The notes beneath the pieces are model-generated. The model had not been told where the DNA came from and searched no databases. It saw only the letters and a list, made by a program, of their open reading frames with translations. Positions 7,935 to 61,893 of a stretch of 64,000 bases of DNA are shown here, piece after piece. The stretch spans positions 34,695 to 98,694 of the forward strand of contig CAZYHS010000002.1 of the NCBI GenBank assembly GCA_964647545.1. Reading direction: 5' to 3'. Position 1 is the stretch's first letter. Every line of letters begins with the position of its first letter. The position numbers were made by a program, and so were the translations under genes. Source of the DNA: an uncultured Pseudomonadota bacterium (GTDB taxonomy: Bacteria; UBA10199; GCA-002796325; 1-14-0-20-49-13).

Positions 7935-8606
7935 ATGATTTTCATGAGCACACGAGAAGAACTTCTAAATATTTTCGAAGTGCTCTTAAAGCACTTTGGC
8001 CCGCAGAAATGGTGGCCCGCCGATTCGCCCTTCGAAGTGATGGTCGGCGCCATCCTTACGCAAAATACCAGCTGGTCAAACGTCGAAAGGGCGATAGCAA
8101 ATTTAAAGAACGCTAAGCTGCTTGACCCGCGAAAAATGCTTCGCCTTGACGCCGAGACGCTCGCAAACTTGATAAGACCCGCAGGCTATCCCAACGTAAA
8201 AACAAAAAGAATACAGAATTTTCTAAGATTTTTCGTCGAAGAGTTCAATGCGGACGTTGCGAAAATGGGGCGCGAGAGCGTCGATTCGCTTCGTGAAAAA
8301 CTCTTGAGCGTGAAAGGCGTGGGGCCGGAAACGGCCGATTCGATTTTGCTTTACGCGCTCGCAAAGCCCGTATTTGTTTGCGACGCCTACACCCACCGCA
8401 TTTTTTCTAGGCACGGCATGTTAGATGAAGGAGTCTCTTACGACGACGTGCGCGCTCTATTTATGGACAACCTCCCAAACGAAGAAAAGCTTTTCAACGA
8501 ATATCACGCGTTGATAGTTAAGACCGGCAAAGATTTTTGCCGGCCGCGTCCAAAGTGCGATTTGTGCCCGCTTGGGGCGCTGCTGAAAAAGCCTCTTAAG
8601 GTTTAA
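7935..8606 (+). CDS. HhH-GPD superfamily DNA glycosylase (endonuclease III-like) with a C-terminal 4-Cys cluster
   Basis: It has an HhH-GPD core (VGAILTQNTSWSNVERA ... GVGPETADSILLYAL) and a C-terminal C-x6-C-x2-C motif. Confidence 0.8.
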   Translation: MIFMSTREELLNIFEVLLKHFGPQKWWPADSPFEVMVGAILTQNTSWSNVERAIANLKNAKLLDPRKMLRLDAETLANLIRPAGYPNVKTKRIQNFLRFFVEEFNADVAKMGRESVDSLREKLLSVKGVGPETADSILLYALAKPVFVCDAYTHRIFSRHGMLDEGVSYDDVRALFMDNLPNEEKLFNEYHALIVKTGKDFCRPRPKCDLCPLGALLKKPLKV

Positions 8607-11181
8607 TTACCGAAAGAACGTAAGCCTTAAGGTCGAGATATCTCTTTGCCGTCGTCAAAACGTCCTGTCGGGTTACTTTTAATATCTTCTGCGGATACTG
8701 TTCCAGTTCGGCGATGCCCAGCCCGTAAAGTTCGTTGTAGGTGTAGCCGCTGGCCAGCGCGCTAACTCTCTGCTGGTCTAATTCGTAGGCTCCAACCATG
8801 TACTGTTTTGCGCGTTCGAGCTCTTCCGGCGAAACAAGCTCTTTGCTTATGAGCGACAGCTCGTTCTTGATGCCGTTAATGGCGGTCTCGGTTTTTGAGG
8901 GGTCGCAGCCGATGTAAACGGCGAAGTAGCCCTCTTCTGGGCCTACGTGCATGGTCGAGTTCACGGCATATGCGAGGCTCATCTTATCGCGCAGCGTCGA
9001 GAAGAGCCGGCCGCCTTGTCCGGCCAGAATGTGATTTAGCACGGCCAGTTTGTAATTGTCAGGCGAGCCGAGATGCGTCCCTAAAAATCCGAGAACGATG
9101 TGGGCTTGCTCTTTCCCCTTTTTTATTTTTTCGGCAGTAACGATATGTTTCGGCCGCACGATCTTTGCCTTTGGGGCTTTGAACCGGCCTATTTTTTTAA
9201 GGTCGATCCAGTCGTTCGCGAGCTTTTTTATCTCTTCGGGATTTACGTCTCCGACGACCGTGATGACAATGTCTGCCGGATTAAGATGGTTCTTCCAGAA
9301 TTTTCTGAGATCGTCGGCGGTCAGCGATGAAACCGTTTCTTTCGTTCCTGTGATGCGCATGCCGTAAGGGTGTTTGCCGTAAAGTGACTTCATGAACTGC
9401 GCAAAGGCCAGCCCCGTCAAATGGTCTTCCTGATTTTTTATCGTTTCGATCTGAAGGGCTTTTTCCTTTTCTACCTCTTTCTTATCGAACGACGGGGCGC
9501 ACATCACCTCGGCGAACATGCCGAAACCGTCGTAAAGTTTTTCACTTAAAAATTCGCAGCGCAGTCCGATAGCATTGCGTCCGCAGACCCCTTCGATCAT
9601 TCCGGCTATCGATTCGATCTTTTTGGCGACTTCGACAGCGTTGCGTTTTGCTGTTCCCTTTGTGATGCTTCTCGCGATGAGGTGTGAGATGCCGTTGTTC
9701 TTCGGAGTCTCGTGTCTTAGCCCGCCGTGCATCGCCGCGTAGATGGCGACAATCGGCAGGACGTGGTTTTCCCGAACGACAAGTTTAATGCCGTTCTTGA
9801 GGCGATAGAGTTTCGGCGCGCTCTTTTGCGATCTTTTCACGACGCTTGTTATTTTGTTCCTTGTGACCGCCGCCTCAAGGGCTTTCGCCGTCGGCTCTAC
9901 CTTCGCCTCTTTTGGGGAGAGGACTTCGAGCGTGCAGTTTTGAGGCGTCAGATATTTCATGGCAACGGCTCGTATCTCTTCGGCCGTCAGGTCGCCGAGT
10001 ACTTGAAAATAGCGCTTTTCAAATTCGTGGTCTCCGGCCGTCGCGGTGAAATAGGCGAATTTTGCCGACATGCCGCCGACCGTTTCCCGTTCGTAAACTT
10101 CGCTTGCGCGAATGTTTATCTTGGCGAGATTGAGCTCGTCGGCCGAAACGGTTTCGGTCGCAATTTTTTGTATCTCTTCCCAGATAGAATCGACAGCTTC
10201 GACAAGTTTTTCAGGTTGAGTGAGACCGCCTATCATGAACAGTCCCGGATATTTCGGCGTGAACGCGTAGCAATAGATCGTGTTCACGAGACGTTTTTTT
10301 TCCTTTACGATCTGCTCGAACCGGCTCGAATCGGCGCCGCCTAAAATGTGGGAAAGGACATCGAGCGCGGCTATGTCGGCGTGCGTAATTTCGGGGACGT
10401 GAAAGCCCATTATGAAATTGGTCGCCTGAATGTCCATCGAGCTTGTGTGAATCTTTAAGTTCGTTTGATGCGGCTCGGCCGGAACTACGACTGTTGGCGC
10501 GATGTTTTCGGGCTGTTTGAAACTTTCGAACGCTTTTGATATCTTTGAGAGCATGCTCTTGGTTTCAAAATCTCCGACCACGATGAACGTCATGTTCTTC
10601 GGCGTGTAGTGGCGCTTGTAGAACGAAAGGACCGTGCTTCGGTCGAACGATTTAACGACGTTTTCAAAACCTATGATGGGCCGGCCGTAAGTGTGCTTTG
10701 AAAATGCGTGCCTAAAAAGATTTTCACTGACGACGTGCCCGGGGTTGTCCTTACCTCTGCGGATCTCTTCGCAGATGACCTCAAGTTCGCGTTCCAGCTC
10801 CTGCTCGTCGAATAGCGGATTAATAACGGCGTCGGAAAGTATTTCGAGGCCTTTGTCCGAAAACCTGCTGGCCATGTTAACGTAAAAAACCGTCTGGTCG
10901 AAGCTTGTGTAGGCGTTTATGTCGCCGCCGGCGGCCTCTATTTCGCGGGCAACGGCGCTCACAGGACGCGTCGGCGTCCCTTTGAAGATCATGTGTTCGA
11001 TAACGTGACAAAGTCCGGCTTCGGCGTTGGTTTCGACGGCCGAACCGACGTTGACCAGAACGCTAAGACTGATGACGGGGGCGGAGTGATTTTCGCACAG
11101 CAGAACATCCATTCCGTTTGGGAGCGTGAATTTTGTAGTTTGCATGCACCGGTTTATAAGTGAGAGGGTGCCAAACGACAA
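8596..11181 (-). CDS. Tandem-domain M16 (pitrilysin/insulinase) family zinc peptidase
   Basis: The inverted zinc-binding motif HxxEH (CHVIEHMIFKGT) lies near the N-terminus. At 861 aa it is consistent with two fused M16 active/inactive halves. Confidence 0.85.
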   Translation of the reverse strand: MSFGTLSLINRCMQTTKFTLPNGMDVLLCENHSAPVISLSVLVNVGSAVETNAEAGLCHVIEHMIFKGTPTRPVSAVAREIEAAGGDINAYTSFDQTVFYVNMASRFSDKGLEILSDAVINPLFDEQELERELEVICEEIRRGKDNPGHVVSENLFRHAFSKHTYGRPIIGFENVVKSFDRSTVLSFYKRHYTPKNMTFIVVGDFETKSMLSKISKAFESFKQPENIAPTVVVPAEPHQTNLKIHTSSMDIQATNFIMGFHVPEITHADIAALDVLSHILGGADSSRFEQIVKEKKRLVNTIYCYAFTPKYPGLFMIGGLTQPEKLVEAVDSIWEEIQKIATETVSADELNLAKINIRASEVYERETVGGMSAKFAYFTATAGDHEFEKRYFQVLGDLTAEEIRAVAMKYLTPQNCTLEVLSPKEAKVEPTAKALEAAVTRNKITSVVKRSQKSAPKLYRLKNGIKLVVRENHVLPIVAIYAAMHGGLRHETPKNNGISHLIARSITKGTAKRNAVEVAKKIESIAGMIEGVCGRNAIGLRCEFLSEKLYDGFGMFAEVMCAPSFDKKEVEKEKALQIETIKNQEDHLTGLAFAQFMKSLYGKHPYGMRITGTKETVSSLTADDLRKFWKNHLNPADIVITVVGDVNPEEIKKLANDWIDLKKIGRFKAPKAKIVRPKHIVTAEKIKKGKEQAHIVLGFLGTHLGSPDNYKLAVLNHILAGQGGRLFSTLRDKMSLAYAVNSTMHVGPEEGYFAVYIGCDPSKTETAINGIKNELSLISKELVSPEELERAKQYMVGAYELDQQRVSALASGYTYNELYGLGIAELEQYPQKILKVTRQDVLTTAKRYLDLKAYVLSVIKP

Positions 11182-11205
11182 GACAAAAGTACGACCAAAG
11201 ATGCT

Positions 11206-12021
11206 CTAATAAAGGCGTTGATTGGTGCCGAATCGTGTGACGACCACGGCGCCAAGCCCCATGAACCATAGCATAGTTTTGACGAACGCTCCGACGACGG
11301 GGATAAGCGCGATCAAACCGATGGCTACAAATCCGACAAGGACCTCAAGCAGCATTGGTTGGTTCGGTTTTTTTATGGCGTTGAAAAATTTCAAACCGAT
11401 GAGCTGGCACATCGCCGCAAATCCGAAGAAGGTTGCGGCCGATACAAGCACTACAAGAACTGGGATCAGCGGAATTCCGACTATCGTTATAAGCAGCATT
11501 ACGCTTACAGGCGCCAGCAAAATGCTAGCGGCGATTCCGGCCAGAAGAGCTTTCCAAGGATGCATCTGCGTGAAATGCGAAACTCTGCCGATGTGAGCCG
11601 TGAAAAACAGGGCGCAAAGAATTAAAAGTGCGAACATCCCAGCGAGTATCAGCAGCGCGAGCGCCGCGACCACCCAGCTTCCCAGCAGGGGGAGAGTCAG
11701 CCACATTCCGTCGGTAGGAAGGCTTATCGGAGCTTTGGCGAAAAACGCCCCTTCACCTTTTTCGGTGTCGCCGAAGAAGACGACCGTGGAGCCTTCGACC
11801 CGTCCGCTTGGGCCCACTTCGACGTCGCCGCCGATGACAATAAGGTCTTTTGTAACCGTGCCCGACAACGCAACGTCGCCGCCGATGACTACGACGTGTT
11901 CGAGTTGATCGCCTGAGGGGATCGAAACATCTTCGCCGATCTTAACCAGATCTTTTGCCAGAGATGTCGCCGGAATTAGTGCAGCCGCCAATAGACAGAC
12001 GATCAATAGTTTTTTCAGCAT
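11206..12021 (-). CDS. Secreted/membrane protein with an N-terminal signal peptide, a short beta-helix-like (bactofilin/DUF-like) repeat region and a polytopic C-terminal membrane domain
   Basis: The start MLKKLLIVCLLAAALIPATSLA has a strong RBS (ggggga) 8 nt upstream. The longer ORF to 12072 lacks an RBS. The repeats read DVALSGTV / IVIGGDVEVGPSG. It lies immediately upstream of, and co-directional with, the M16 peptidase gene. Confidence 0.65.
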   Translation of the reverse strand: MLKKLLIVCLLAAALIPATSLAKDLVKIGEDVSIPSGDQLEHVVVIGGDVALSGTVTKDLIVIGGDVEVGPSGRVEGSTVVFFGDTEKGEGAFFAKAPISLPTDGMWLTLPLLGSWVVAALALLILAGMFALLILCALFFTAHIGRVSHFTQMHPWKALLAGIAASILLAPVSVMLLITIVGIPLIPVLVVLVSAATFFGFAAMCQLIGLKFFNAIKKPNQPMLLEVLVGFVAIGLIALIPVVGAFVKTMLWFMGLGAVVVTRFGTNQRLY

Positions 12022-13897: not shown

Positions 13898-15193
13898 ATG
13901 GGTGCTAAACAAAAAATAGCCGGCGTCGGCATGAAATTCGTTAGAAAGGGGACGCTCGATCCGGCAAAGATGCTGAAGATAATGTCGCCGGTCGATAGAG
14001 TCCTGTCGCGAAATCTGTCAAAGACCGGCAGATACATTCGTCGGAATCAGCTCAAATACATCGCCGAAGCGCTAAAGGCCGAGAACCTGCGCGCATGGAC
14101 GAGCGTTCTTTTTCCGGCCGAAATTCTTCATCCGTTCGGGGTTTTACCTCTGAGTCTTGAGATACTTTCCGGAATTTTTTCAACTGTCGGGCTCTCGCGC
14201 GAGTTCCTCAATATTTCTCAGTCGTTCGGAGCGCCTCAGACGATATGCTCGTTTCACAGGCTGCTGGTGGGGCTTGCCAAGAGCCGATATTTCGCTCCGC
14301 CTAAATTTGTTGCGGCGACCTCGTTACTTTGTGACGGCAATCTTAAATCGTTTGCCGAAGCGGCCCGCGAAAGCGGCTCGGAGTTCGTTTATCTCGACAT
14401 CCCGTTCGAAGAAACAGCCCATTCGGTAAAATATTTGAAAGAGCAGCTTGAGGCCGCGGCCAGAAAGTTTGCCGAGGGGACGGGACAGAGATATTCGCTC
14501 GATGCGGTTAAACACTCGGTCACGCTGGCCGATAAGGGGCTCAAGCTCCTTTCGGACATCTGGAGCAAAAGGATCTCGGAACAGAACAATCTTTTTCGCG
14601 GCTACGAAATGGCGAACTTCTGTTTTCCGTCGCACTATCTTTTGGGGAGCCCGCTGCTTATCGACCTTTCTAACCGTGTTCTTAAAGGTCTTGCCGACAA
14701 AACCGACCGCAACAAAAAATACAAGACCCGCGCCCTTTCTAAAAAGGCAAAGCGCCTTATGTGGATGCACATCGTTCCTCAATACGACACGCGCATGTGG
14801 GATCTGCTCGACGACGGGGTTAATGCAAAGATCGTCTGTGAGGAGTACACGGCCCCGTATTGCTTTGGCTATGACGTGAACGACCCGTTCGGCTCGATAG
14901 CCCGCCGTTTGATACGGCATCCGTCTAACGGGCCGCTCTCCAGACGCGTCGAACACTCTCTTAGCGTGGCGAAAGATTTTAATGTTGACGGAGTCGTCCA
15001 TTATTCGAGCTGGGGATGTCATCAGGCGACGGGGAACGTCTCAATAATTGAAAAAGAATTTGAAAAGTGGGGGTTTAAATTTTTAAATCTCAACGGCGAC
15101 GCGGTTGACGCCAACAATACGACATTTGAGCAGCATCGCACACGCATTGAGGCCTTTCTCGAAGACATGTTCAGCACCGCGTCTTTGAAATGA
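13898..15193 (+). CDS. 2-hydroxyacyl-CoA dehydratase family subunit (HgdA/HgdB-like partner)
   Basis: The C-terminal region (GVVHYSSWGCHQATGNVSIIEKEFEKWGFKFLNLNGDAVD ... HRTRIEAF) matches the conserved C-terminus of the 2-hydroxyglutaryl-CoA dehydratase family. It starts 9 nt after the upstream activase-fusion gene. Confidence 0.7.
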   Translation: MGAKQKIAGVGMKFVRKGTLDPAKMLKIMSPVDRVLSRNLSKTGRYIRRNQLKYIAEALKAENLRAWTSVLFPAEILHPFGVLPLSLEILSGIFSTVGLSREFLNISQSFGAPQTICSFHRLLVGLAKSRYFAPPKFVAATSLLCDGNLKSFAEAARESGSEFVYLDIPFEETAHSVKYLKEQLEAAARKFAEGTGQRYSLDAVKHSVTLADKGLKLLSDIWSKRISEQNNLFRGYEMANFCFPSHYLLGSPLLIDLSNRVLKGLADKTDRNKKYKTRALSKKAKRLMWMHIVPQYDTRMWDLLDDGVNAKIVCEEYTAPYCFGYDVNDPFGSIARRLIRHPSNGPLSRRVEHSLSVAKDFNVDGVVHYSSWGCHQATGNVSIIEKEFEKWGFKFLNLNGDAVDANNTTFEQHRTRIEAFLEDMFSTASLK

Positions 15194-15240
15194 TAAACTG
15201 GGGGTTTTAGGCTCTAAAGGCCGGAATGACATCGTAAACA

Positions 15241-15345
15241 GTTAATTCGGTTAGGTCCGTTATTTCCGTTAACGGACTAAACGGAAATATCCGAACTAAC
15301 GGAATTAACCGAAATAACCGACGCAACTGGCCTAACCGAATCAAC
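15241..15345. repeat. Intergenic repeat element built from degenerate CCGTTAA / CGGTTAG / TAACCGA-type units (copy 1 of a dispersed family)
   Basis: It reads ...ggtccgttatttccgttaacggactaaacggaaatatccgaactaacggaattaaccgaaataaccgacgcaactggcctaaccgaatc... It has internal hairpins (tatttccgtt / aacggaaata). Motifs such as ccgttatttccgtt, gaattaaccga and ctaaccga recur at 26791-26883 and 38515-38596. Confidence 0.7.
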
Positions 15346-15346
15346 A

Positions 15347-15490
15347 AATTCAGGCGACTTATGTTTCAAGGGCCTCTCGCAGATCGATGCATCAAATGGC
15401 CTTGGTGCCGCATCGATCGAGAGTGGAGGTGCGTTTGCAGGCCGCAACCTGCAAACGACACAGTCCCTTGAAACATAAGTTGCCTGAAAG
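15347..15490 (+). other. Highly structured ~140-nt element: a 26-bp terminal inverted repeat enclosing two internal hairpins. It is a candidate cis-regulatory RNA or a miniature inverted-repeat element upstream of ogt.
   Basis: The outer arms are ttcaggcgacttatgtttcaaggg (15347-15372) and cccttgaaacataagttgcctgaa (15465-15490), which are complementary with one G-U position. Inner hairpin 1 spans 15374-15423 (ctctcg-ca-gatcgatgc ... gcatcgatcgagag). Inner hairpin 2 spans 15432-15457 (cgtttgcagg ccgcaa cctgcaaacg). It ends 45 nt before the ogt start. Confidence 0.6.
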
Positions 15491-15534
15491 TGTGTTCGGG
15501 AGATCCCCGCTTAATATCGCGGGAATGACAATGA

Positions 15535-15828
15535 ATGTTTAAAAATATTCAAATCGATTTTTCAAAGCTCGGCGGCACGCCTTTTCAAAACCGCGTCTGG
15601 AAAGAAATTCACAAGGTAAAATTCGGCAGAACTCTCACTTACAAAGAGCTCGCGCGTCGCGTCGGCCGGCCAAAAGCTTACAGAGCCACAGCTTCCGCGT
15701 GCGGAAAAAATCCGCTCCCGCTAATTATTCCGTGCCACAGAATTGTCGCGTCGAACGGCATCGGCGGGTTTTCGCTTGGCGTCGGACTGAAGCGGTGGCT
15801 TCTTTCGATCGAAGGCCTTTCCTACTGA
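15535..15828 (+). CDS. ogt: Short methylated-DNA-protein-cysteine methyltransferase (Ogt/MGMT C-terminal DNA-binding/active-site domain only)
   Basis: It has the active-site PCHR motif (IIPCHRIVASNG) and a helix-turn-helix (LTYKELARRVGRPKAYRA). At 97 aa it lacks the usual N-terminal domain. Confidence 0.8.
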   Translation: MFKNIQIDFSKLGGTPFQNRVWKEIHKVKFGRTLTYKELARRVGRPKAYRATASACGKNPLPLIIPCHRIVASNGIGGFSLGVGLKRWLLSIEGLSY

Positions 15829-17424: not shown

Positions 17425-17509
17425 GTGTAAAGTTTTCCTTACACAAAAGGCTAATAAATTCAAGTCTTTATGTTGATTTTAAAAAAGTCGGATTTTTATG
17501 AAAATAGTT

Positions 17510-17610
17510 AGCAACTTTTTTGGCTCTACGCCGAAACTTCTCCCGAGTCCGGAGGAAGTATAAAAGGTTGCAAAAAATACAAAGCAACTTTTTTGTATTT
17601 TCGCCGAAAA
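17510..17610 (+). promoter_or_regulatory. Two ~28-bp direct repeats (agcaactttttt-g-N6-cgccgaaa) in the AT-rich leader of the low-GC gene. They may be an operator or duplicated promoter element.
   Basis: Repeat 1 is at 17510-17537 (agcaacttttttggctctacgccgaaa) and repeat 2 at 17583-17610 (agcaacttttttgtattttcgccgaaa). A short palindrome gttgc-N12-gcaac lies between them. The RBS aaggaggg is at 17639. Confidence 0.4.
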
Positions 17611-17650: not shown

Positions 17651-19219
17651 ATGGGTGAACCGAAAGTTAAAGAGTCAATTTTTACAAAATGGGTAGTTAT
17701 CGATTCTGCCGTTGAAAAGTGTAATGCTGAAGATACGCCTGAAGAAAAGGCAGAATGTTTTAAAGGCGCTTACTTCTTGCAGGTCAATGCTGCTAAGGAA
17801 GACTTTTCCCCTTACGCAGGTGCGGTGGGGGTAAAAGGTACTTTTGTTAGAGGTATCGGTGATCTTTGTTCTAATGTGTTCTTAAATGATGGCCCCGGAG
17901 TCAGCGATTTTTTCACAAATGAAAATGATTTTCGGGATCAGGTAGAAGCCATGCAGGCTTGCATGAATAGCATTAATGGTCTTGTCGACAGTTTTCAAAA
18001 AATTTCCCCGAACTGGAGAACAGACATTAGAGACGCAGCATCTGCTGAAAGAAAAAATACAGAGCCCCCAGCGGTTAATCTTCCCGCGTCCGCCGCTCAG
18101 ATATATATAGATAAGTACCGTGATCATTATGTTAGAGCGCTGATTAAGTGGGCGGTAGAAAACCAGCACAGGTTTACTGATGAGCAATTAAAAACGATTG
18201 CTCTTGCAATACATAATATTAAAGCTTCTAAAGAAGGGGCTGCTAGGCTGAAAGCAGAATATGAGGATATCGCCGATGTTGATAAAGAGGCTCGTCGTGC
18301 TGAAAAAGTAACAGTGAAAGGTGTGGTCGGTGTTGATAATAGATCGGGGTCGGCATTTAAAAGCGGAGTAAAAAAGATTTCCGCTGATGGCGACTCTATT
18401 TTAGATGTTAAAGTAGGTCTTGGTTTTAACTCACTTGATAAAAATAATCCAGCAGTTGCCGAGATGGTGAAGCCTGGTGGTAGTAGTATGTCAGGTTTTT
18501 CGTTTAATGGCGTTTCATTTGGGACCAGATTATTCTCTAAAGACTTCTTTACTCTAAAAACTGAAATGGCATTTGAGCTCAAAAGTGTTTCAATTATTCC
18601 AAAAGTGGAGTTTGCCGTTACAGAAAATGTGAAATTGGTTGCAGAAAATACTTTCAAAAATTCAAGCTATGAAAGCATGGCAATGAACTACACTCCGAAG
18701 GTTGGCGTTGAATTTGAAAGTAAGGAAGGTTGGTTGGCAGAAGCGGGCGGTCATGTTGGTGCAACGATTCCAAATGATGGTGGGAATTCTATTGCCTTTG
18801 ATGCCAATGCAAAAGTCCGTTGGTTTGATGGGTTCACAACGGGCTTGGAGTTTACCTATGGCGATCCGATTGGTCGAGCCGGCTATGCTATTGGGGCAGT
18901 AGCCGATGATTATAACACAAATGTTAAGCTTGTTAACGAATATGAATTTGAAAGTCCCCTCCTCGGACGTTTTAAGAATGTTGGTTTAACAGCTGAGTGG
19001 GCATATTTTGATAGATCAGTTGTGGCTGGTGGCGATGGCGGAGAGCTAGAGTATTCACTCAATATGTTTTCTACATATGCATCGGTTGCCCTTATTTTTA
19101 ATGACTTTTTAACTACAAAATTTAACGTGGGTTACATAGGTCTTTTCCCAAAGCTTGATTCGGCAGGAGATCCGATAAATGCTTTATATTTAGGTGCTGA
19201 GTTTGGGCTTGGGCTTTGA
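17651..19219 (+). CDS. Orphan 522-aa protein on a low-GC island: a helical N-terminal half, a beta-strand-rich C-terminal half with alternating hydrophobic residues (beta-barrel-like), and no N-terminal signal peptide
   Basis: It has a strong RBS. Base composition is visibly AT-richer than the flanks (low-40s % GC by eye versus mid/high-50s). The C-terminus is ...YLGAEFGLGL. I do not recognise the family. Confidence 0.7.
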   Translation: MGEPKVKESIFTKWVVIDSAVEKCNAEDTPEEKAECFKGAYFLQVNAAKEDFSPYAGAVGVKGTFVRGIGDLCSNVFLNDGPGVSDFFTNENDFRDQVEAMQACMNSINGLVDSFQKISPNWRTDIRDAASAERKNTEPPAVNLPASAAQIYIDKYRDHYVRALIKWAVENQHRFTDEQLKTIALAIHNIKASKEGAARLKAEYEDIADVDKEARRAEKVTVKGVVGVDNRSGSAFKSGVKKISADGDSILDVKVGLGFNSLDKNNPAVAEMVKPGGSSMSGFSFNGVSFGTRLFSKDFFTLKTEMAFELKSVSIIPKVEFAVTENVKLVAENTFKNSSYESMAMNYTPKVGVEFESKEGWLAEAGGHVGATIPNDGGNSIAFDANAKVRWFDGFTTGLEFTYGDPIGRAGYAIGAVADDYNTNVKLVNEYEFESPLLGRFKNVGLTAEWAYFDRSVVAGGDGGELEYSLNMFSTYASVALIFNDFLTTKFNVGYIGLFPKLDSAGDPINALYLGAEFGLGL

Positions 19220-22406: not shown

Positions 22407-24695
22407 ATGAAAAACACAAAAAAAGTTTTGCTGGCCGTTGCTGCGTTTACGCTTTGCGCGTTATCTTTTAGTTCGCACGCTTCAAATAAGATCGACCCGC
22501 TGCTCGAAATTATGGCGGCACGGGGCCCCAAACAGGCGGCTACTTCAATGAAGGCCTTTGGAGTGGCTTCGTCGTCAGACGGTGTCGTAGAGGTGGAGGC
22601 CCTCGTGAAATCGGGCCCCGACGTCGGCGCTGCGGTCGAAGCGATCGAATCGGCAGGCGGCAAGGTCGGGTTGATCCTCGGCGATATCCTTACGGTTTCG
22701 ATGCCGCTCGATGCGGTTGCTGTCTTGGAGAACGAGCCCGACATTATTTACGTCGAGGCGGCCAAGCCTCTTTCGGCAAAGATGAACTTTGCCCGCACGG
22801 TTACCTTCGTTGACCTTGTTCAGAGCGGAAGCGGCACCGGAGGAACGCCCTACAACGGTAGCGGAGTTTTTGTCGGCGTCGTCGATAGCGGGATCGACTG
22901 CCAGCACGCCGATTTTTTCAGCGGAACGACCCCGCGTATCTACGCCTATTGGGACCAGACGGCTTCCGGCGACGGCGTCGCCGAGATCGCCGGAACTACC
23001 GGAGTTGAATATACCGGCGCCGATCTTGACATTGACGGCGCGTGTAAAAATTCTCCGGACGATCCGGCCTCCAATTCGGGGGGCGGACACGGCACTCACG
23101 TTGCCGGTATCGCGGCCGGTTCAAATTCGACCTACACAGGAGTTGCTCCGCAATCGAATCTTGTCGTCGTAAAACTGGACGAGTCGGGAGCTAGCGGCGG
23201 AACCAGCGGGCCTCTTGCAACGAGAATTCTCGAAGGTGTTCAATATATTTTCAAAAAAGCGCAGTCTTTAAAGAAACCGGCGGTCGTCAATCTTTCGATC
23301 GGCACATCGCTCGGCGCGCACGACGGCACCTCGCTTTTGGAAAAAGGTCTCGACAATCTTTTAATGGAGGACACCACCACCGAAAAACAGGGGCGTGCGA
23401 TCGTCAATGCAGTCGGCAACGAAAACGCCTATTACAACCGTCTTGCGACCGGCAACAACAACATAGGCGGTATTCACGCAGCCATTTCGCAGTCGGGCGG
23501 CTCGTCATGGGCTTATGAGATTCATTCGACAAACGCAACTGCGGGCCTTGTCGGAGGGACTTACGTTGACATCTGGCTTAATGCAGACAGCTCATGTTCG
23601 ATAGGCGTAAACGCACTCTACAAAGACGCGCATTCTCTTGCGGTCAGAATGATTCCGGTTCGCGCCGGCTACTCAAACAAGAACTCGCCCACCAAGATCG
23701 GCAACGTTTCGATGTACGTCGATTTCAGCGAGAACGTCAGCGCACTAAACGGCATGCAGCACGCCGTTGCGCTGATTGGAACGACCAGCCCCCTTGACCC
23801 TCAAATAGAAAACTATTCGCACGATCTCGTCTTTACGGGCAATTGTACCGGCAATGCGTGGATCTATTACGATAGCGTTGCTTACAATTATTTTTACAAC
23901 GGACACGCAGGTCAGATCTTCAACGACGGCGGGGTCACTTATCGTTATGTCGCCGGAGATTCAAATAACACCGCGACAATTCCGTCGACCGCAACGAAGG
24001 TAATTGCGGTCGGTTCATTCATGGCAAGAAATACTTACGTCGATATTAATGATCAGGTACGCAGCCAGCAAAGTGTAAGCTACGGCAGCGCCACCAACAT
24101 TTCTACCTTTTCAAGCCTTGGCCCGACCAGCGAACCGATTTCAAGCAACCGGCGCTATAAGCCGGACATCGGCGCTCCCGGGGAACCCATTATTTCAACT
24201 TTAACGACACAAAATACGGTGAGCGCTTCGTTAAAGGGCGACGCAACTCATTGGAAGATGCAGGGCTCGTCGATGGCATCTCCGCACGTGGCCGGCGTCG
24301 TCGCGCTCATGCTCAATAAGAACGGATGTCTCAAACCTTCCGTTGTCAAAAGTACCTTGCTTGGCACTGCCGATCAGGACTCTTACACCGGAGCTGTTCC
24401 CAATAATTATTGGGGATACGGCAAGGTCAACGCACAGAGCGCCGTGAATTCTACCAAAGCTAGAATATGTTCGCCCGACAACCCAGCCGAAGACGGTTGT
24501 GTTTACGATTCCGATTGCCCAAGCGGCTATTCGTGCGTCAATAACGTCTGCCAGAAAAATACAACGAAAACATGTTCACTTATTTTAAGCGGAACCCCGC
24601 AAAAGAGATCGTGGACAGATGTTTTGTCGCTGCTGTTTGGAATTGCCGTTGTGGGCGCTCTTAGAGCGAGAAAGTATTTTGACTCTATCAGATGA
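22407..24695 (+). CDS. Subtilisin-like serine protease (peptidase S8) with a signal peptide, a Cys-rich C-terminal module and a C-terminal hydrophobic helix plus basic tail
   Basis: The catalytic triad is in canonical order: D in VGVVDSGIDCQHADF, H in GGGHGTHVAGIAAG and S in GSSMASPHVAGVVALM. The C-terminus reads ...KTCSLILSGTPQKRSWTDVLSLLFGIAVVGALRARKYFDSIR. Confidence 0.9.
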   Translation: MKNTKKVLLAVAAFTLCALSFSSHASNKIDPLLEIMAARGPKQAATSMKAFGVASSSDGVVEVEALVKSGPDVGAAVEAIESAGGKVGLILGDILTVSMPLDAVAVLENEPDIIYVEAAKPLSAKMNFARTVTFVDLVQSGSGTGGTPYNGSGVFVGVVDSGIDCQHADFFSGTTPRIYAYWDQTASGDGVAEIAGTTGVEYTGADLDIDGACKNSPDDPASNSGGGHGTHVAGIAAGSNSTYTGVAPQSNLVVVKLDESGASGGTSGPLATRILEGVQYIFKKAQSLKKPAVVNLSIGTSLGAHDGTSLLEKGLDNLLMEDTTTEKQGRAIVNAVGNENAYYNRLATGNNNIGGIHAAISQSGGSSWAYEIHSTNATAGLVGGTYVDIWLNADSSCSIGVNALYKDAHSLAVRMIPVRAGYSNKNSPTKIGNVSMYVDFSENVSALNGMQHAVALIGTTSPLDPQIENYSHDLVFTGNCTGNAWIYYDSVAYNYFYNGHAGQIFNDGGVTYRYVAGDSNNTATIPSTATKVIAVGSFMARNTYVDINDQVRSQQSVSYGSATNISTFSSLGPTSEPISSNRRYKPDIGAPGEPIISTLTTQNTVSASLKGDATHWKMQGSSMASPHVAGVVALMLNKNGCLKPSVVKSTLLGTADQDSYTGAVPNNYWGYGKVNAQSAVNSTKARICSPDNPAEDGCVYDSDCPSGYSCVNNVCQKNTTKTCSLILSGTPQKRSWTDVLSLLFGIAVVGALRARKYFDSIR

Positions 24696-26428
24696 AGAAG
24701 ATAAAATTTCTAGTTATTTTGGGCTTTTTTGTTTTATCGCTTCCGGCTTTCGCAAAGGAGCCGAAGTTCATCGAAGAGTTTAGCGCCCTTTCGGAGCGAT
24801 GGGGGAGCCTTTCTGCAAACCAGCGCATGTTTTTAATGGGCTATGCATCGTACAGAGAAGGGCGTTTAAACGAAGCCAAACGTAAGTTTACCGCGATCGA
24901 CGGAAAGTATCCGCTGCTGCAGGGATACATTTCAGAGTTTTTGGCAAAGATCAAAAACGGAGGCGAAAGATATTCGTTCGTTGATAAGCAGGCCGACGCC
25001 GATAAGAATGCCGCAGCCCTCACTAAAATTTTCGAAAAGTCGCGCAGCCCCGATGACGCATACTCCGCAGCGCGCGCGCAGTTTGTCGCACGCGATTACC
25101 AAAAAGCCGCCGAACTTTTTTTGCTGGCCGAAAAGTCTCAGAAACAGCGGCTGTCGGCTCTTGAATATCTTGCCACCTGCTATGCAAGGCTCGAAAAATA
25201 TGACGAGGCCATAAAAATCCACGAACAGATCATCGACGAATTTCCGTCAAATAAAAAGGCGCATGCGAAGGCGTTGTTTAAGATCGGTTTTCTGCACCTC
25301 GACGGCGGAAATTACGAATCTGCGCGCGACGATTTTTCTATGCTGGAAAAATATTCCCATGACTACCAGCGCGAGCAGGTCAGGTGGTATCTTGCGTGGA
25401 TATCCTTAAAGTTGGGCGAGTTCGACCGTGCGGCTCGGCTGTTTTCGGACATTGAAAGACGCGGCGGCAAAGATTGGCCGGCTCGCGCCCGTTTCTGGCG
25501 TGCCGAATCGCTTGAACGTTCGGGCAAGCTAGAGGCGGCGAACGCAATTTACGAGTCAATCATGTCGAAGTCGCCGCTGACCTATTATGGGATTTTGTCC
25601 GCCTCGAAGCTGGGGCAAAAGATTTCCAAACTCCCCGACTTTACCGAAGAGGACGAGGCCGAAGCCGTGTCGGAGGCCGAAGCGAAAAATTCGCCGGAGA
25701 GTTCTAACGGAGAAGCTTCGGGCGAGATTGCTCCCGACGGTCTTGGCGAACGCGCTAAAATAATTCTTGAGCTCGACAGGCTTGATGTGAGCGAGCTCGT
25801 CAGTCTAGAGATCGACTCCTTGATGGCGAAGCCGCCAAAAGATGCCGACTGGAATTCAATTCTTGCGCTTGCGAAAAAGCACGACGCTTGGAATGCGGTC
25901 CGCAAAATGGCCAAGGGTAAGATACGCAGTCATTTAAAGGACGGAAAAAACCTCGCGTGGGAAGTGGCCTACCCGAATGCATGGAAAAAACTTGTCGAGG
26001 CAAACGGCGTTCGTTTTGGCGTCGATCCGAAATTTATCTGGTCGATCATGCGCGAAGAATCGACGTTCAGACCAAAAGTTGTGTCGCCGGCCGGCGCGGT
26101 AGGTCTCATGCAGTTAATGCCGAAGACCGCGGCGAAGATGGCGCAATTAGGCGGTAGGAGTTCGTTTGCCGCCGAACGTCTTTTTCATCCGGCGTTTAAT
26201 ATCGAAATGGGGACGCGCTATCTTGCATTTCTCACCAAGCGCTACAATGGCAATAAGTTCCTAGCTGCGGCCGCTTACAACGCCGGCGAACAGGCGGTTG
26301 ACAGGTGGATAAGCGACCAGAAAAATTTCAGCGAAGACTTTGTCGAAGAAATTCCCTACAAAGAGACACGCAATTACGTCAAAAAAGTTCTCAAGAGCTA
26401 CTGGATCTACAGCACGATTTATAAATAA
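24692..26428 (+). CDS. Soluble lytic murein transglycosylase (TPR/superhelical N-domain plus SLT catalytic domain)
   Basis: It has a signal peptide and TPR-like repeats. The SLT motifs are ESTFRPKVVSPAGAVGLMQLMPKTA (catalytic Glu) and AAYNAGEQAV. It overlaps the S8 stop by 4 nt. Confidence 0.85.
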   Translation: MKKIKFLVILGFFVLSLPAFAKEPKFIEEFSALSERWGSLSANQRMFLMGYASYREGRLNEAKRKFTAIDGKYPLLQGYISEFLAKIKNGGERYSFVDKQADADKNAAALTKIFEKSRSPDDAYSAARAQFVARDYQKAAELFLLAEKSQKQRLSALEYLATCYARLEKYDEAIKIHEQIIDEFPSNKKAHAKALFKIGFLHLDGGNYESARDDFSMLEKYSHDYQREQVRWYLAWISLKLGEFDRAARLFSDIERRGGKDWPARARFWRAESLERSGKLEAANAIYESIMSKSPLTYYGILSASKLGQKISKLPDFTEEDEAEAVSEAEAKNSPESSNGEASGEIAPDGLGERAKIILELDRLDVSELVSLEIDSLMAKPPKDADWNSILALAKKHDAWNAVRKMAKGKIRSHLKDGKNLAWEVAYPNAWKKLVEANGVRFGVDPKFIWSIMREESTFRPKVVSPAGAVGLMQLMPKTAAKMAQLGGRSSFAAERLFHPAFNIEMGTRYLAFLTKRYNGNKFLAAAAYNAGEQAVDRWISDQKNFSEDFVEEIPYKETRNYVKKVLKSYWIYSTIYK

Positions 26429-26491
26429 AAACGGTTAGGTCGGTTTAGTCGGTTAATCCTGTTAGTTCCGTTAACTGACTAAACCGTTTTT
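26426..26491. repeat. Hairpin/terminator-like element made of the CGGTTAG / CCGTTAA repeat units (copy 2 of the dispersed family). It may be a bidirectional terminator.
   Basis: It reads aaaaacggttaggtcggtttagtcggttaa-[tcctgttagttccg]-ttaactgactaaaccgttttt. It has tandem 9-mers cggttaggt / cggtttagt / cggttaatc, a long imperfect stem and flanking A- and T-runs. Confidence 0.6.
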
Positions 26492-26605
26492 TAAGTCACC
26501 CCCGAGGTCTTAATCGCCTGTTCGCCGCGTAGTATTGGCGGAGGGATCTCGCTTACATCTCTTGCGTCTTTGCGAGGAGCGCAAGGCGCGACGAAGCAAT
26601 CCCCC

Positions 26606-26646
26606 GTACGTAGCGGATACGTAGCGGTAACGTACGTAGCGGTAAC
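26606..26646. repeat. Three tandem copies of a ~13-bp unit (gta)cgtagcggtaac
   Basis: The copies are gtacgtagcggat / acgtagcggtaac / gtacgtagcggtaac. They lie inside the 459-bp intergenic region. Confidence 0.6.
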
Positions 26647-26790: not shown

Positions 26791-26883
26791 TTGCTCCGTT
26801 ACCGTGATCCGGTTATTTCCGTTTAGTCCGTTAACAGAATTAACCGACCTAACCGACAAAACCGAATTAACTGAACTAACTGA
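26791..26883. repeat. Intergenic repeat element, copy 3 of the CCGTTAA / TAACCGA family
   Basis: It reads ...ccggttatttccgtttagtccgttaacagaattaaccgacctaaccgacaaaaccgaattaactgaactaactga. It shares ccgttatttccgtt, gaattaaccga and ctaaccga with copy 1, and taactgaact with copy 4. Confidence 0.7.
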
Positions 26884-26887
26884 TTTT

Positions 26888-28027
26888 TCACCCATGCACT
26901 TTTTCATGTTCGGCCATTGCCTGCCGGTCGGTCATGCTGGCGATGTGATCGCAGACGATGCGGTGCGCGTCGCCCCCTTTGGAAATGAGGTCGCGCCGGA
27001 ATGACGGCAGACTATCGGTATTTTGCAAATAATAATTAAAGAGCTCTTCGATGATGAGCTGCGCTGTTTTCGTCATCTGCGCGACTTTCGGGTGCCGATA
27101 GAGATTTTTGAATAGAAATTTTCTCAGTTCGCCGATATCTTTTTTCATACCGCTTGAAAAAGCCACCAGTTCCTTGCCTCTCAATCGCACATCTTCGAGC
27201 GTAGCGATCTTTTTCGCCTCGATGTTTGCGCGTGTTTGCGTTTGCAGGTCGGTCACAAAAAGGTGAATGAGGCGTCTCACGATCTGGTATTTCAGCAGGA
27301 GCTTGCCGGCCTTGGGGTGCGCCTCTTTTGAAACCTCCAGCATTTTTTCCCAAAGCCTCACTTCGCCAAGTCGGTCAAAATGGAGCAGCCCAGATTCGAG
27401 CCCGTCGTCGAGGTCGTGATTCAAATAGGCGATTTCGTCGGCGATGTTGACGATCTGCGCTTCGAGCGTTGCGTAGCCGGTCCCTTCAAAATCTTTGCCG
27501 GTGGCCTTGTCGTACTCGCCGGAGTGTTTTGCAATTCCCTCAAGTACCTCGAACGTTAAATTGAGGCCGCGAAAATCGACGTAGCGAAATTCAAGCTCGG
27601 TGACGACACGATAGCTCTGACGATTGTGTTCGAACCCGCCAAAATCTTTCATGAGCTCGTCGAGTGCATATTCGCCGGCGTGTCCGAAAGGCGTGTGACC
27701 CAGATCGTGGGCGAGGGCGATCGCCTCGGCGAGGTCTTCGTTGAGGCCAAGCGTCCTTGCGATTCCGCGCGAAATTTGGGCGACTTCAAGGGTGTGGGTG
27801 AGGCGGGTGCGGTAGTAGTCGCCTTCGTGGTTCACGAAAACCTGTGTTTTATATTCGAGTTTGCGGAATGCCTCGCTGTGAATGATGCGGTCGCGGTCGC
27901 GCTGGAAGGCCGAGCGGAATTCGCACTCGTGCTCTTTGAACTTCCGGCCGCGCGATTTGCTGGAGATGGCGGCAAAAGGGGCTAAAACCTCTCTTTCGCG
28001 CGCCTCATATTCTTGGCGTAGGATCAT
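26888..28027 (-). CDS. dgt: dGTPase-like deoxynucleoside triphosphate triphosphohydrolase (HD domain)
   Basis: The N-terminal motif RDRDRIIHSEAFRKLEYKTQVF ... RLTHTLEVAQISRGIA and the metal-binding HD motif LAHDLGHTPFGH are present. Confidence 0.85.
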   Translation of the reverse strand: MILRQEYEAREREVLAPFAAISSKSRGRKFKEHECEFRSAFQRDRDRIIHSEAFRKLEYKTQVFVNHEGDYYRTRLTHTLEVAQISRGIARTLGLNEDLAEAIALAHDLGHTPFGHAGEYALDELMKDFGGFEHNRQSYRVVTELEFRYVDFRGLNLTFEVLEGIAKHSGEYDKATGKDFEGTGYATLEAQIVNIADEIAYLNHDLDDGLESGLLHFDRLGEVRLWEKMLEVSKEAHPKAGKLLLKYQIVRRLIHLFVTDLQTQTRANIEAKKIATLEDVRLRGKELVAFSSGMKKDIGELRKFLFKNLYRHPKVAQMTKTAQLIIEELFNYYLQNTDSLPSFRRDLISKGGDAHRIVCDHIASMTDRQAMAEHEKVHG

Positions 28028-37718: not shown

Positions 37719-37733
37719 CTGTTACAGACTTTG

Positions 37734-37806
<73 letters not shown>

Positions 37807-38514: not shown

Positions 38515-38596
38515 AATTAACCCGGTTTTGTCTGTTAGTTCTGTTAATTCCGTTATTTCAGTTCCAGCAGTGGATAACTGAACTGATCATTCGTTA
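38515..38596. repeat. Intergenic repeat element, copy 4 of the family, filling exactly the 82-bp gap between two minus-strand genes
   Basis: It reads ataattaacccggttttgtctgttagttctgttaattccgttatttcagttccagcagtggataactgaactgatcattcg. It shares ttccgttatttc and taactgaact with the other copies. Confidence 0.65.
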
Positions 38597-48946: not shown

Positions 48947-49021
48947 AAAATTTCTCCTAAAATTGAAAATTATAAATGACCTAAACTTTTCGGCCGATAT
49001 TATAAAAAGTTGCTAAATTAT

Positions 49022-49060
49022 TTAAAAAAAAGCCGGCACCGCATGAAGCGGTACCGGCTT
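49022..49060 (-). terminator. Rho-independent terminator downstream of gcvPB (minus strand)
   Basis: On the minus strand it reads aagccggtaccgc-ttcat-gcggtgccggcttttttttaa. The stem is 11 bp with one mismatch, followed by a U8 run. Confidence 0.7.
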
Positions 49061-61821: not shown

Positions 61822-61893
61822 CTACAGGTTTAACGTTGTTTAAGATTGTTTAGGTGGTTTAAGCTCGTTTAAATCGCTTAAATCGTTTAAGAG
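61822..61893. repeat. Tandem array of about seven ~10-bp GTTTAAnnnn units filling the intergenic gap between convergent genes
   Basis: The units are gtttaacgtt / gtttaagatt / gtttaggtg / gtttaagctc / gtttaaatcgc / ttaaatc / gtttaagagg. Confidence 0.7.

Follow-up and report, generated by a model that had tools for sequence, protein, structure and literature searches.

Five short repeat arrays, designated a to e, occupy intergenic spacers in a 64,000-nucleotide stretch of DNA from an uncultured bacterium (assembly GCA_964647545.1, contig CAZYHS010000002.1, positions 34,695 to 98,694; hereafter the window). The window is ordinary chromosome of a deltaproteobacterial metagenome-assembled genome (MAG) and carries genes for HgdD/BcrAD-like, MFS, SLT, dGTPase, SMC, FTCD, HAD, ALDH, and EPSP synthase proteins; no transposase, including Y1, and no rRNA gene was found in it. 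Its nearest named relatives, at 69 to 71% identity, are 'Deltaproteobacteria bacterium CG11...' and 'RIFCSPLOWO2_02_FULL_47_10'. All five arrays start 0 to 43 bp past a stop codon, and none lies within a long open reading frame (ORF) (Table 1). Arrays a to d are 60 to 110 bp in size and consist of a 9-bp unit, dkTC[C/G]GTTA, repeated in strict register, with a core of TC[C/G]GTT(A) and two to three free spacer bases per unit. Written nine bases per line, the sequence shows GTTAnnTCS units in the left arm and their reverse complement, nnTAACSGA, in the right arm; forward and reverse units abut head to head in a palindrome, TCCGTTAAC(N)GA, at the GTTAAC junction, and the element termini read AAAAACGGTT...AACCGTTTTT. 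Tandem Repeats Finder reports a period of nine at all five loci.

Table 1 Position, composition, and setting of the five repeat arrays (positions are those of the window)
Array	Position	Strand	Units	Setting
a	15236..15345	.	4 forward units, GTTA at 15241, 15250, 15259, 15268; GTTAAC junction 15268-15273; about 8-9 reverse units nnTAACSGA, reaching about 15339	Starts 43 nt past stop of HgdD-like gene (13898-15193)
b	26429..26490	.	5 forward units; GTTAAC junction 26470-26475; 2 reverse units; flanked by AAAAAC...GTTTTTT	Starts 1 nt past stop of SLT/TPR gene (24692-26428)
c	26807..26885	.	3 forward units; GTTAAC junction 26830-26835; 6 reverse units	Ends 3 nt from stop of dGTPase-like gene (26888-28027, minus strand)
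d	38516..38596	.	5 forward units (38523-38565), then degenerate out-of-register reverse part (TAACTGAACTGA); essentially one-armed	Entire 82-bp spacer between FTCD gene stop (38597) and HAD gene start (38514); tandem, both minus strand
e	61822..61893	+	7 direct (C/T)GTTTAAr units, 9-11 bp spacing; no inverted arm	Entire spacer where the ALDH gene (stop 61821) converges with the EPSP synthase gene (stop 61896)

An earlier note on this DNA had described a dispersed intergenic repeat family, situated at gene ends and in convergent or tandem spacers, and on both counts it was right. The family is not, however, built from separate GTTAAC, CGGTTAG, and TAACCGA motifs as the note had it: the organizing principle is the 9-bp unit with a CNGTT core, and GTTAAC is merely the junction of two arms (8 of its 11 sites in the window are unrelated to the arrays). 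The string ccgttatttccgtt, listed there as shared, occurs exactly once in the window. Array e is indeed a GTTTAA-type variant, but its unit, CGTTTAAA, is a different one, spaced at 9 to 11 bp and present in one orientation only; 9-bp arrays of the GTTTAAAC type, found in Brocadia, Nitrospinota, Nitrospirota, and Omnitrophota, are similar to it. The strict 9-bp periodicity, the head-to-head two-arm design, and the link to PF05635 cassettes described below had been missed.

The phasing lies far outside what base composition yields. The three-unit pattern CNGTT-N4-CNGTT-N4-CNGTT has 16 matches in the window, all within arrays a to d, compared with a mean of 0.02 in 100 dinucleotide shuffles, and the corresponding four-unit pattern matches seven times versus zero in the shuffles. 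Position weight matrix (PWM) sums over three units reach 26 to 36 bits against a null maximum of 19, a result with some circularity in it, the training set of the PWM having been these same units. A generic array detector run over the 64 kb returned no further array beyond the known loci. Together with the position of the copies outside long ORFs and their recurrence in independent assemblies, these counts exclude chance as an explanation, and the two-strand symmetry of the arrays is incompatible with coding, so that a compositional artifact or a set of protein-coding tripeptide repeats has virtually no probability left. What could be said for such an origin is that many matches of a loose four-unit genome scan are ordinary perfect 9-bp minisatellites, some of them in coding DNA; since that scan is swamped by minisatellites, we make no claim of CNGTT core enrichment from it.

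The copies are also alike outside the core. Positions 15247-15293 match the reverse complement of 26810-26856 with 91% identity over 47 nt, spacers included, and 26832-26870 match 38517-38555 with 85% identity. On these alignments the window copies have a common ancestry that extends past the core and into the spacers. The two outcomes that the earlier note had named as fatal to its proposal, motifs at compositional frequency and copies that fail to align beyond 7-mers, are thus both contradicted. Independent Joint Genome Institute (JGI) contigs from the same population carry the arrays as well. Array d is 100% identical in contigs L122 and L123; in the strain contig L244 (99% protein identity) array b is identical to that in the window, and array c is shorter by exactly one unit, differs by about seven substitutions, and stands next to a 235-bp insertion of an unrelated element.

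A metagenome scan with the junction pattern GTTNNNTCCGTTAACNGANNNAAC matched at least 120 stretches, and at least 47 or so true arrays of the same design are found among the matches listed, on soil and groundwater contigs, with 2 to 10 forward units, GTTAAC, and 2 to 9 reverse units. Similar arrays occur in genomes of Nitrospirota, Planctomycetota, Omnitrophota, Gemmatimonadota, and Deltaproteobacteria; named carriers are Nitrospirae RIFCSPLOWO2_02_FULL_62_14 and two Deltaproteobacteria MAGs. A Gemmatimonadales locus (L102) has about 16 direct GGTCGGTTA units directly past a rodA-like stop codon, and another unit type, GTTTAAAC(S), occurs in Candidatus (Ca.) Brocadia, Nitrospinota, Nitrospirota, Omnitrophota, and Planctomycetota. 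A scan of viral contigs gave three chance matches and no arrays. Rfam holds nothing relevant for the whole window at the gathering threshold or for 15.2-15.6 kb and 26.4-26.9 kb at E<=5, and a search of the literature, which did not extend to subscription journals, turned up neither the arrays nor their PF05635 link.

Three further repeat arrangements were noted besides. Blastocatellia/Acidobacteria MAGs (L041, L051, L045, L052, L060, and L092) contain dispersed perfect hairpins of about 100 bp with conserved stems and variable loops, in which four AACGGAAnn units face four nnTTCCGTT units tail to tail, the opposite of the window arrangement. In Microcoleus, Tychonema, and other Oscillatoriales (L005, L018, L020, L030, L040, L089, L100, and L110), numerous loci are occupied by 9-bp arrays of TAACGGATG in tandem, the flanks of which (cggattctg...) are conserved; this cyanobacterial family shares the AACGG core. 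In one soil/groundwater lineage (L139, L192, L206, L231, and L238), 9-bp arrays lie inside an element of about 150 bp whose outer parts are 7-bp CGTTAAn or CGnTTAA repeats, so that one core is found at two periodicities.

A larger form of the element ties the arrays to a protein family. In the manC-manB spacer of several soil contigs, an array adjoins a small gene starting MKIERFEDL, and more reverse units, in a further run, encode the C-terminal tail and stop codon of that gene. An iterative search of the collected loci recovered ten ORFs of this type, which belong to PF05635 and TIGR02436 (23S rRNA intervening-sequence protein, Avd-like), a family first discovered within intervening sequences of 23S rRNA and known until now chiefly from rRNA gene insertions. 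Arrays stand on both sides of the ORF in four independent settings, namely soil manC-manB, Omnitrophota L010, Nitrospirota L075, and Ca. Brocadia L021, and an independent test on looked-up homologs found all five bracketed by 9-bp arrays (L250, Ca. Nitrospira bockiana; L251, a Logan contig; L252, Planctomycetes; L253, Omnitrophica; L254, a cinA-thpR locus). Over the 71 kb of these five looked-up loci, 10 to 11 of the 14 detected arrays adjoin a PF05635 ORF. The cassette runs in the order forward arm, ORF, reverse arm, with the ORF stop codon inside the reverse units; the simplest cassettes (L251, L253, and L254) have the form f(4-6)-ORF-r(5), with ORF-proximal units that are complementary including their spacers. 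Besides the three settings L010, L021, and L075 and the five looked-up loci, the ORF lies between the arms in L124, L125, L147, and L232. An all-against-all BLAST search for a recurrent neighboring gene returned none except PF05635. On this shared architecture, the window arrays appear to be the ORF-less form of a widespread cassette whose arms bracket a PF05635/TIGR02436 four-helix-bundle gene.

Protein subfamily and unit type go together. Three GTTTAAAC-type proteins from three phyla share 65 to 79% mutual identity and 30 to 45% identity with the CNGTT/TCGTT group, within which identities are 52 to 95%, and two paralogs from one genome with different flanks are 27 to 31% identical. PF05635 subfamily, in these comparisons, follows unit type and not host phylum. 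The C-terminal tails of the PF05635 proteins (e.g., KRPQQTQRTKRIQLS) and their stop codons are encoded by reverse-arm units in L125 (4940-5010), L232 (2760-2815), L250 (10380-10440), and L253 (5340-5420), so that tail length and sequence vary with the array. As an observation on the manC-manB site, the PF05635 genes found there in L160 (9150-9700) and L250 (9880-10440) are distantly related (about 25% identity) and their flanking unit types differ (AGTAATTG-8 versus GTCCGTT-9); the shared position in different lineages suggests either a hotspot or a long period in which gene and arms diverged together.

The anatomy of the arrays was derived from 42 non-redundant examples, traced by a rule that included positions 4 and 6 to 8 of the unit. 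Their units have the consensus r-G-T-C-c-G-T-T-n, with C avoided in the spacers. C4, G6, T7, and T8 carry 1.5 to 1.9 bits of information, in part because the tracing rule demands it; G2 and T3 carry 0.7 bits, and the nearly free positions 1, 5, and 9 no more than 0.23 bits. At these free positions mirrored units match with frequencies of 0.22, 0.36, and 0.18, as compared with 0.32, 0.34, and 0.29 expected, and neighboring units likewise show no likeness above chance; since neither mirrored nor adjacent units exceed chance, hairpin covariation is absent and recent slippage has left no sign. The core is conserved unit by unit, and the spacers are free. Arm lengths peak at four to five units with a sharp drop after five, and the arms are often unequal (4/9, 10/4, or 5/2). 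Array termini are inverted (rrrCGTT...AACGyyy); the upstream stop codon is 0 to 15 bp off and often falls within the first unit (CGT-TAA, -TAG, or -TGA), and the downstream start codon lies 1 to 60 bp away. The genes on either side of most arrays are co-directional and belong to housekeeping operons, examples being nuoB, pth, ispF, speD, ureB, atpF, skp, and mreD.

Two-armed arrays fold far better as RNA than their shuffles, with a median z of -3.9 over the 42 arrays and free energies (dG) of -13 to -52 kcal/mol. In the window, array a folds with a dG of -36.4 kcal/mol (z = -5.3), array b with z = -4.2 and a stem that runs into a U-run (U6) with A5 on the opposite side, and array c with z = -3.1 on the minus strand; arrays d and e have no significant fold, and the internal hairpins claimed in the earlier note therefore hold for three of its five copies. 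Copy b looks like a bidirectional terminator. Consensus scans returned no terminator at any window copy and no promoter, and most arrays are without U-tracts.

Plain structural hairpins, acting as mRNA stabilizers of the repetitive extragenic palindrome (REP) kind or as intrinsic terminators and grown by 9-bp slippage with no dedicated protein, would account for the significant folding, the A- and U-runs on either side of copy b, the location at gene 3' ends, and the changes in unit number, and slippage does occur, as the identical adjacent units of Gemmatimonadales L102 show. We nevertheless consider this explanation unlikely, as adjacent units do not, in general, resemble each other at the free positions beyond chance level, the arms do not covary and are often unequal, one-armed copies exist, and the simple terminator scan finds nothing; it would also leave unexplained the retention, in several phyla, of one and the same CNGTT core with 9-bp phasing.

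The elements are dispersed and change by whole units. Copies from the same sample share spacers and boundaries of about 150 bp at 80 to 97% identity within unrelated flanks; three copies from one sample (L139, L206, and L231) are 89 to 92% identical over about 150 bp. Orthologous loci retain the array across flanks of 76 to 89% nucleotide identity, and whole units are gained or lost both between such loci and between near-identical strains. Dispersal into unrelated flanks, a lineage-specific consensus, inverted termini, and the lack of any array in about 30 kb of two relatives (about 70% amino acid identity) are what a classical MITE (a miniature transposable element with inverted repeats) would show, with the arms as terminal inverted repeats that carry several transposase-binding subrepeats and are mobilized in trans by some transposase; the earlier note had offered a small MITE as one identity for the family. 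This origin seems quite improbable to us. No target-site duplication is seen at the boundaries of the window copies or of five aligned paralogous copies, although fuzzy boundaries make this a weak negative; no transposase adjoins any copy, and no transposase-bearing parent was found; the copies are 80 to 92% identical rather than near-identical and persist at orthologous sites; and the only ORF-bearing relatives encode the four-helix-bundle protein and no known transposase. Separately, a Y1_Tnp gene is present in the relative L001 and adjoins no array.

The elements share with REPs, bacterial interspersed mosaic elements (BIMEs), and REP doublets forming hairpins (REPINs) a short, abundant, extragenic, and palindromic nature, a position past stop codons in operons, a lineage-specific consensus, and clustering at hotspots. 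The REP/BIME-like identity offered in the earlier note is not supported, however: the elements have no GTAG/CGTC tag, they are tandem 9-mers of 60 to 110 bp rather than single palindromes of 20 to 40 nt, no link with a Y1 transposase was seen, and an internal 9-bp periodicity is unlike REPs (PMC3733652).

A close likeness exists to the intervening sequences (IVSs) of 23S rRNA, which have a stem of terminal inverted repeats, an S23p (PF05635) ORF in the loop, and cleavage by RNase III, which also exist in ORF-less forms of about 100 nt, and which have long been suspected of being selfish and possibly mobile (PMC4990558). Like the IVSs of Coxiella, Leptospira, and Salmonella, the present elements are short insertions with complementary, stem-forming arms and an optional PF05635 ORF; the stem is found in arrays a, b, and c and not in d and e, and the ORF in related loci only. 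The IVS of Salmonella, too, is carried in 23S rRNA, in contrast to the present elements, which reside in mRNA intergenic spacers of ordinary operons rather than in rRNA helices 25 or 45, and whose arms are tandem 9-bp arrays with a conserved core and free spacers, a construction unreported for IVS stems. The full cassettes, by this analogy, look like 23S rRNA intervening sequences relocated to mRNA spacers, and we rate the arrays as IVS-like or REP-like palindromic passengers.

The reading we favor, and to which we give an even chance, is that the arrays are miniature IVS-like elements, that their transcripts form long imperfect stems, and that their phased units are probably recognition sites of an oligomeric protein. 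Because the elements stand directly past stop codons and mostly between co-directional genes, they would be co-transcribed with their neighbors. The arms would then pair into a long imperfect stem resembling those that border IVSs and are cut by RNase III, as the folding suggests, and by analogy with IVSs and REPs this stem may punctuate the operon transcript, as a barrier that sets a 3' end or as a processing site; copy b may additionally serve as a two-way terminator. Each unit may also be a recognition site for an oligomeric protein, the candidate being the cognate four-helix-bundle protein, which would be encoded elsewhere in the genome. The elements themselves would spread and persist as selfish or neutral passengers that gain and lose whole 9-bp units.

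Conservation of the core at the level of single units, strict 9-nt phasing, free and non-covarying spacers, the existence of one-armed copies, and the match of protein subfamily to unit type together suggest recognition of each unit by a protein; the proposal of the earlier note that these are reiterated binding sites fits this unit-level conservation well. Contiguous units with a conserved core, a fixed 9-bp spacing, and unconstrained spacers are also what the sequence of an iterated binding array looks like. The operator of KfrA on plasmid RA3 consists of five 9-bp units, three with one orientation and two inverted (PMC7783346). As with the 9-bp units of KfrA, omega heptads, and Fur hexamers, where several contiguous short units in both orientations are needed for cooperative binding, the present units are short, contiguous, and two-directional; those systems, however, are single plasmid autoregulatory or partition sites, as opposed to the many chromosomal copies found here, mostly away from promoters.

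A DNA-level version of protein binding would make the arrays sites for a nucleoid-associated or regulatory protein unrelated to PF05635, the cooperative filament of which nucleates on the TCCGTTAACGGA palindrome and spreads outward over the units at their 9-bp spacing, with an effect on local topology or transcription. Unit-by-unit conservation, free spacers, strict phasing, and one-armed arrays are as expected of such sites, and the two-orientation KfrA operator is a precedent. We judge it improbable all the same, as PF05635, and no regulator gene, is the recurrent neighbor, many copies lie between convergent genes or within operons where there is no promoter, and the core is common to phyla that share no known specific nucleoid protein.

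As for which protein would read the units in our preferred reading, PF05635 proteins are homologous to Avd, the accessory protein of diversity-generating retroelements (DGRs) (PMC10053308). The four-helix-bundle protein is the candidate binder because the only solved homolog, 2GSC, has five chains in its entry, because of the homology with Avd, and because the arms favor four to five units. Avd forms a basic barrel of five subunits, and both nucleic acid and reverse transcriptase are bound by it. Unlike in DGRs, neither a reverse transcriptase nor template and variable repeats (TR/VR) stand beside the array-flanked PF05635 genes at the looked-up loci. The trp RNA-binding attenuation protein (TRAP) is ring-shaped and reads phased (G/U)AG repeats, separated by non-conserved spacers and matched to the subunits of the ring. 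It offers a model for a pentameric four-helix-bundle protein that reads four to five units, a mode of binding that is purely hypothetical here; there is no homology with TRAP, and the period is 9 nt here as compared with 5 to 6 nt in TRAP.

A more far-reaching proposal, which we advance as tentative and on balance doubtful, joins these elements into one system. The phased 9-nt units would be sites on RNA or DNA that homo-pentameric PF05635 proteins bind specifically, much as TRAP or omega does, each subunit taking one unit of an arm of four to five; every subfamily of PF05635 would have evolved together with a unit type of its own (CNGTT-9, GTTTAAAC-9, TCGTTA-9, AGTAATTG-8, and GGGTTAT-7); and gene and arms would move between phyla as one cassette, with the many ORF-less arrays serving as genome-wide sites by which the protein controls how operon transcripts are processed or terminated.

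Several points weigh against the reading of the arrays as stem-forming elements related to IVSs and recognized by a PF05635 protein. No PF05635 gene or remnant is present in the window, including by a hidden Markov model (HMM) search between arrays b and c, so that the link rests on sequence and architecture shared with other genomes. L010, L021, and L075 were ascertained through their arrays, the five look-ups all represent one protein subfamily, and other PF05635 paralogs have differently built flanks, e.g., 7-bp GGGTTAT or 8-bp AGTAATTG repeats. A stem cannot be the whole story, since d and e have a single arm each and show no significant fold. Since the spacers and the N position do not covary, the stems are beaded with mismatches, which argues against strong selection on the hairpin itself. 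Avd reportedly binds nucleic acid without sequence specificity, and the correlation between subfamily and unit type could be explained by co-inheritance of gene and arms alone.

Other short-site systems were considered as well. CsrA GGA sites were rejected by inspection, as GGA is interrupted at the N position; the register does not suit the elemental pause consensus or the sites of Rho (rut) and RNase E; CtrA, PhoP, LytTR, and IdeR boxes have the wrong spacing; and DnaA boxes, IHF sites, and 9-bp transposon footprints were considered and dropped.

To our knowledge, PF05635/TIGR02436 proteins, which are abundant and multi-copy, have no known role outside DGRs, and IVSs have been called selfish for thirty years without a mechanism that we know of. 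If phased arms routinely bracket PF05635 genes, subfamily and repeat type match across phyla, and housekeeping operons contain dispersed ORF-less arms, both questions merge into one testable system, consisting of a small oligomeric protein and a simple synthetic target; recognition of the units, if true, would provide a function for the long-orphan "IVS protein" family and establish a new kind of recognition between protein and repeat. Were the arrays passive hairpins only, their value would be that of a well-characterized new repeat family. They would also add a new class of intergenic repeats in little-studied phyla, namely Nitrospirota, Planctomycetota, Omnitrophota, and uncultured Deltaproteobacteria. 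Because stop codons and C-terminal tails come from the repeat, these sequences can mislead gene calling, and they can also mislead assembly.

Further elements lie next to the arrays or elsewhere in the window. Directly adjoining array a, and upstream of an MGMT-like gene (15535-15828), is a 149-nt element (15345-15493) with an extremely stable Y-shaped fold, in which a 26-bp outer stem encloses two hairpins (dG of -83 kcal/mol, z = -10.5 for either strand); Rfam contains no match to it. Between arrays b and c, at 26493-26607, lies a member of a second repeat family, about 110 nt in length, with the sequence cacccccgaggt..taatcgcctgt.cgccg..ggcggaggg..gcgacgaagcaatccccc; it has no significant RNA fold, and L244 contains an extra inverted copy in its 235-bp insertion (11190-11425). 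A related 'cattgcgag...gaagcaatc' palindromic element is present in L001 (12650-12790). Also between b and c, the non-coding segment 26607-26647 consists of a perfect tandem repeat of TACGTAGCGGTAACG (two copies) that overlaps a repeat of 11-bp period and is conserved in L244. An intergenic motif of about 45 nt with an invariant core, AGCAACTTTTT...GCCGAAA, occurs at 17489-17536, 17574-17609, and, inverted, 48988-49035; two of its copies stand in tandem upstream of the gene at 17651, and it may be a promoter or operator element. Finally, ARAGORN calls a 90-nt tRNA-Arg(acg) at 9482-9571, inside an M16 peptidase ORF (8596-11181) and without confirmation by Rfam, which is probably a false positive, whereas the tRNA-Ala at 37733-37806 is confirmed by both ARAGORN and Rfam.
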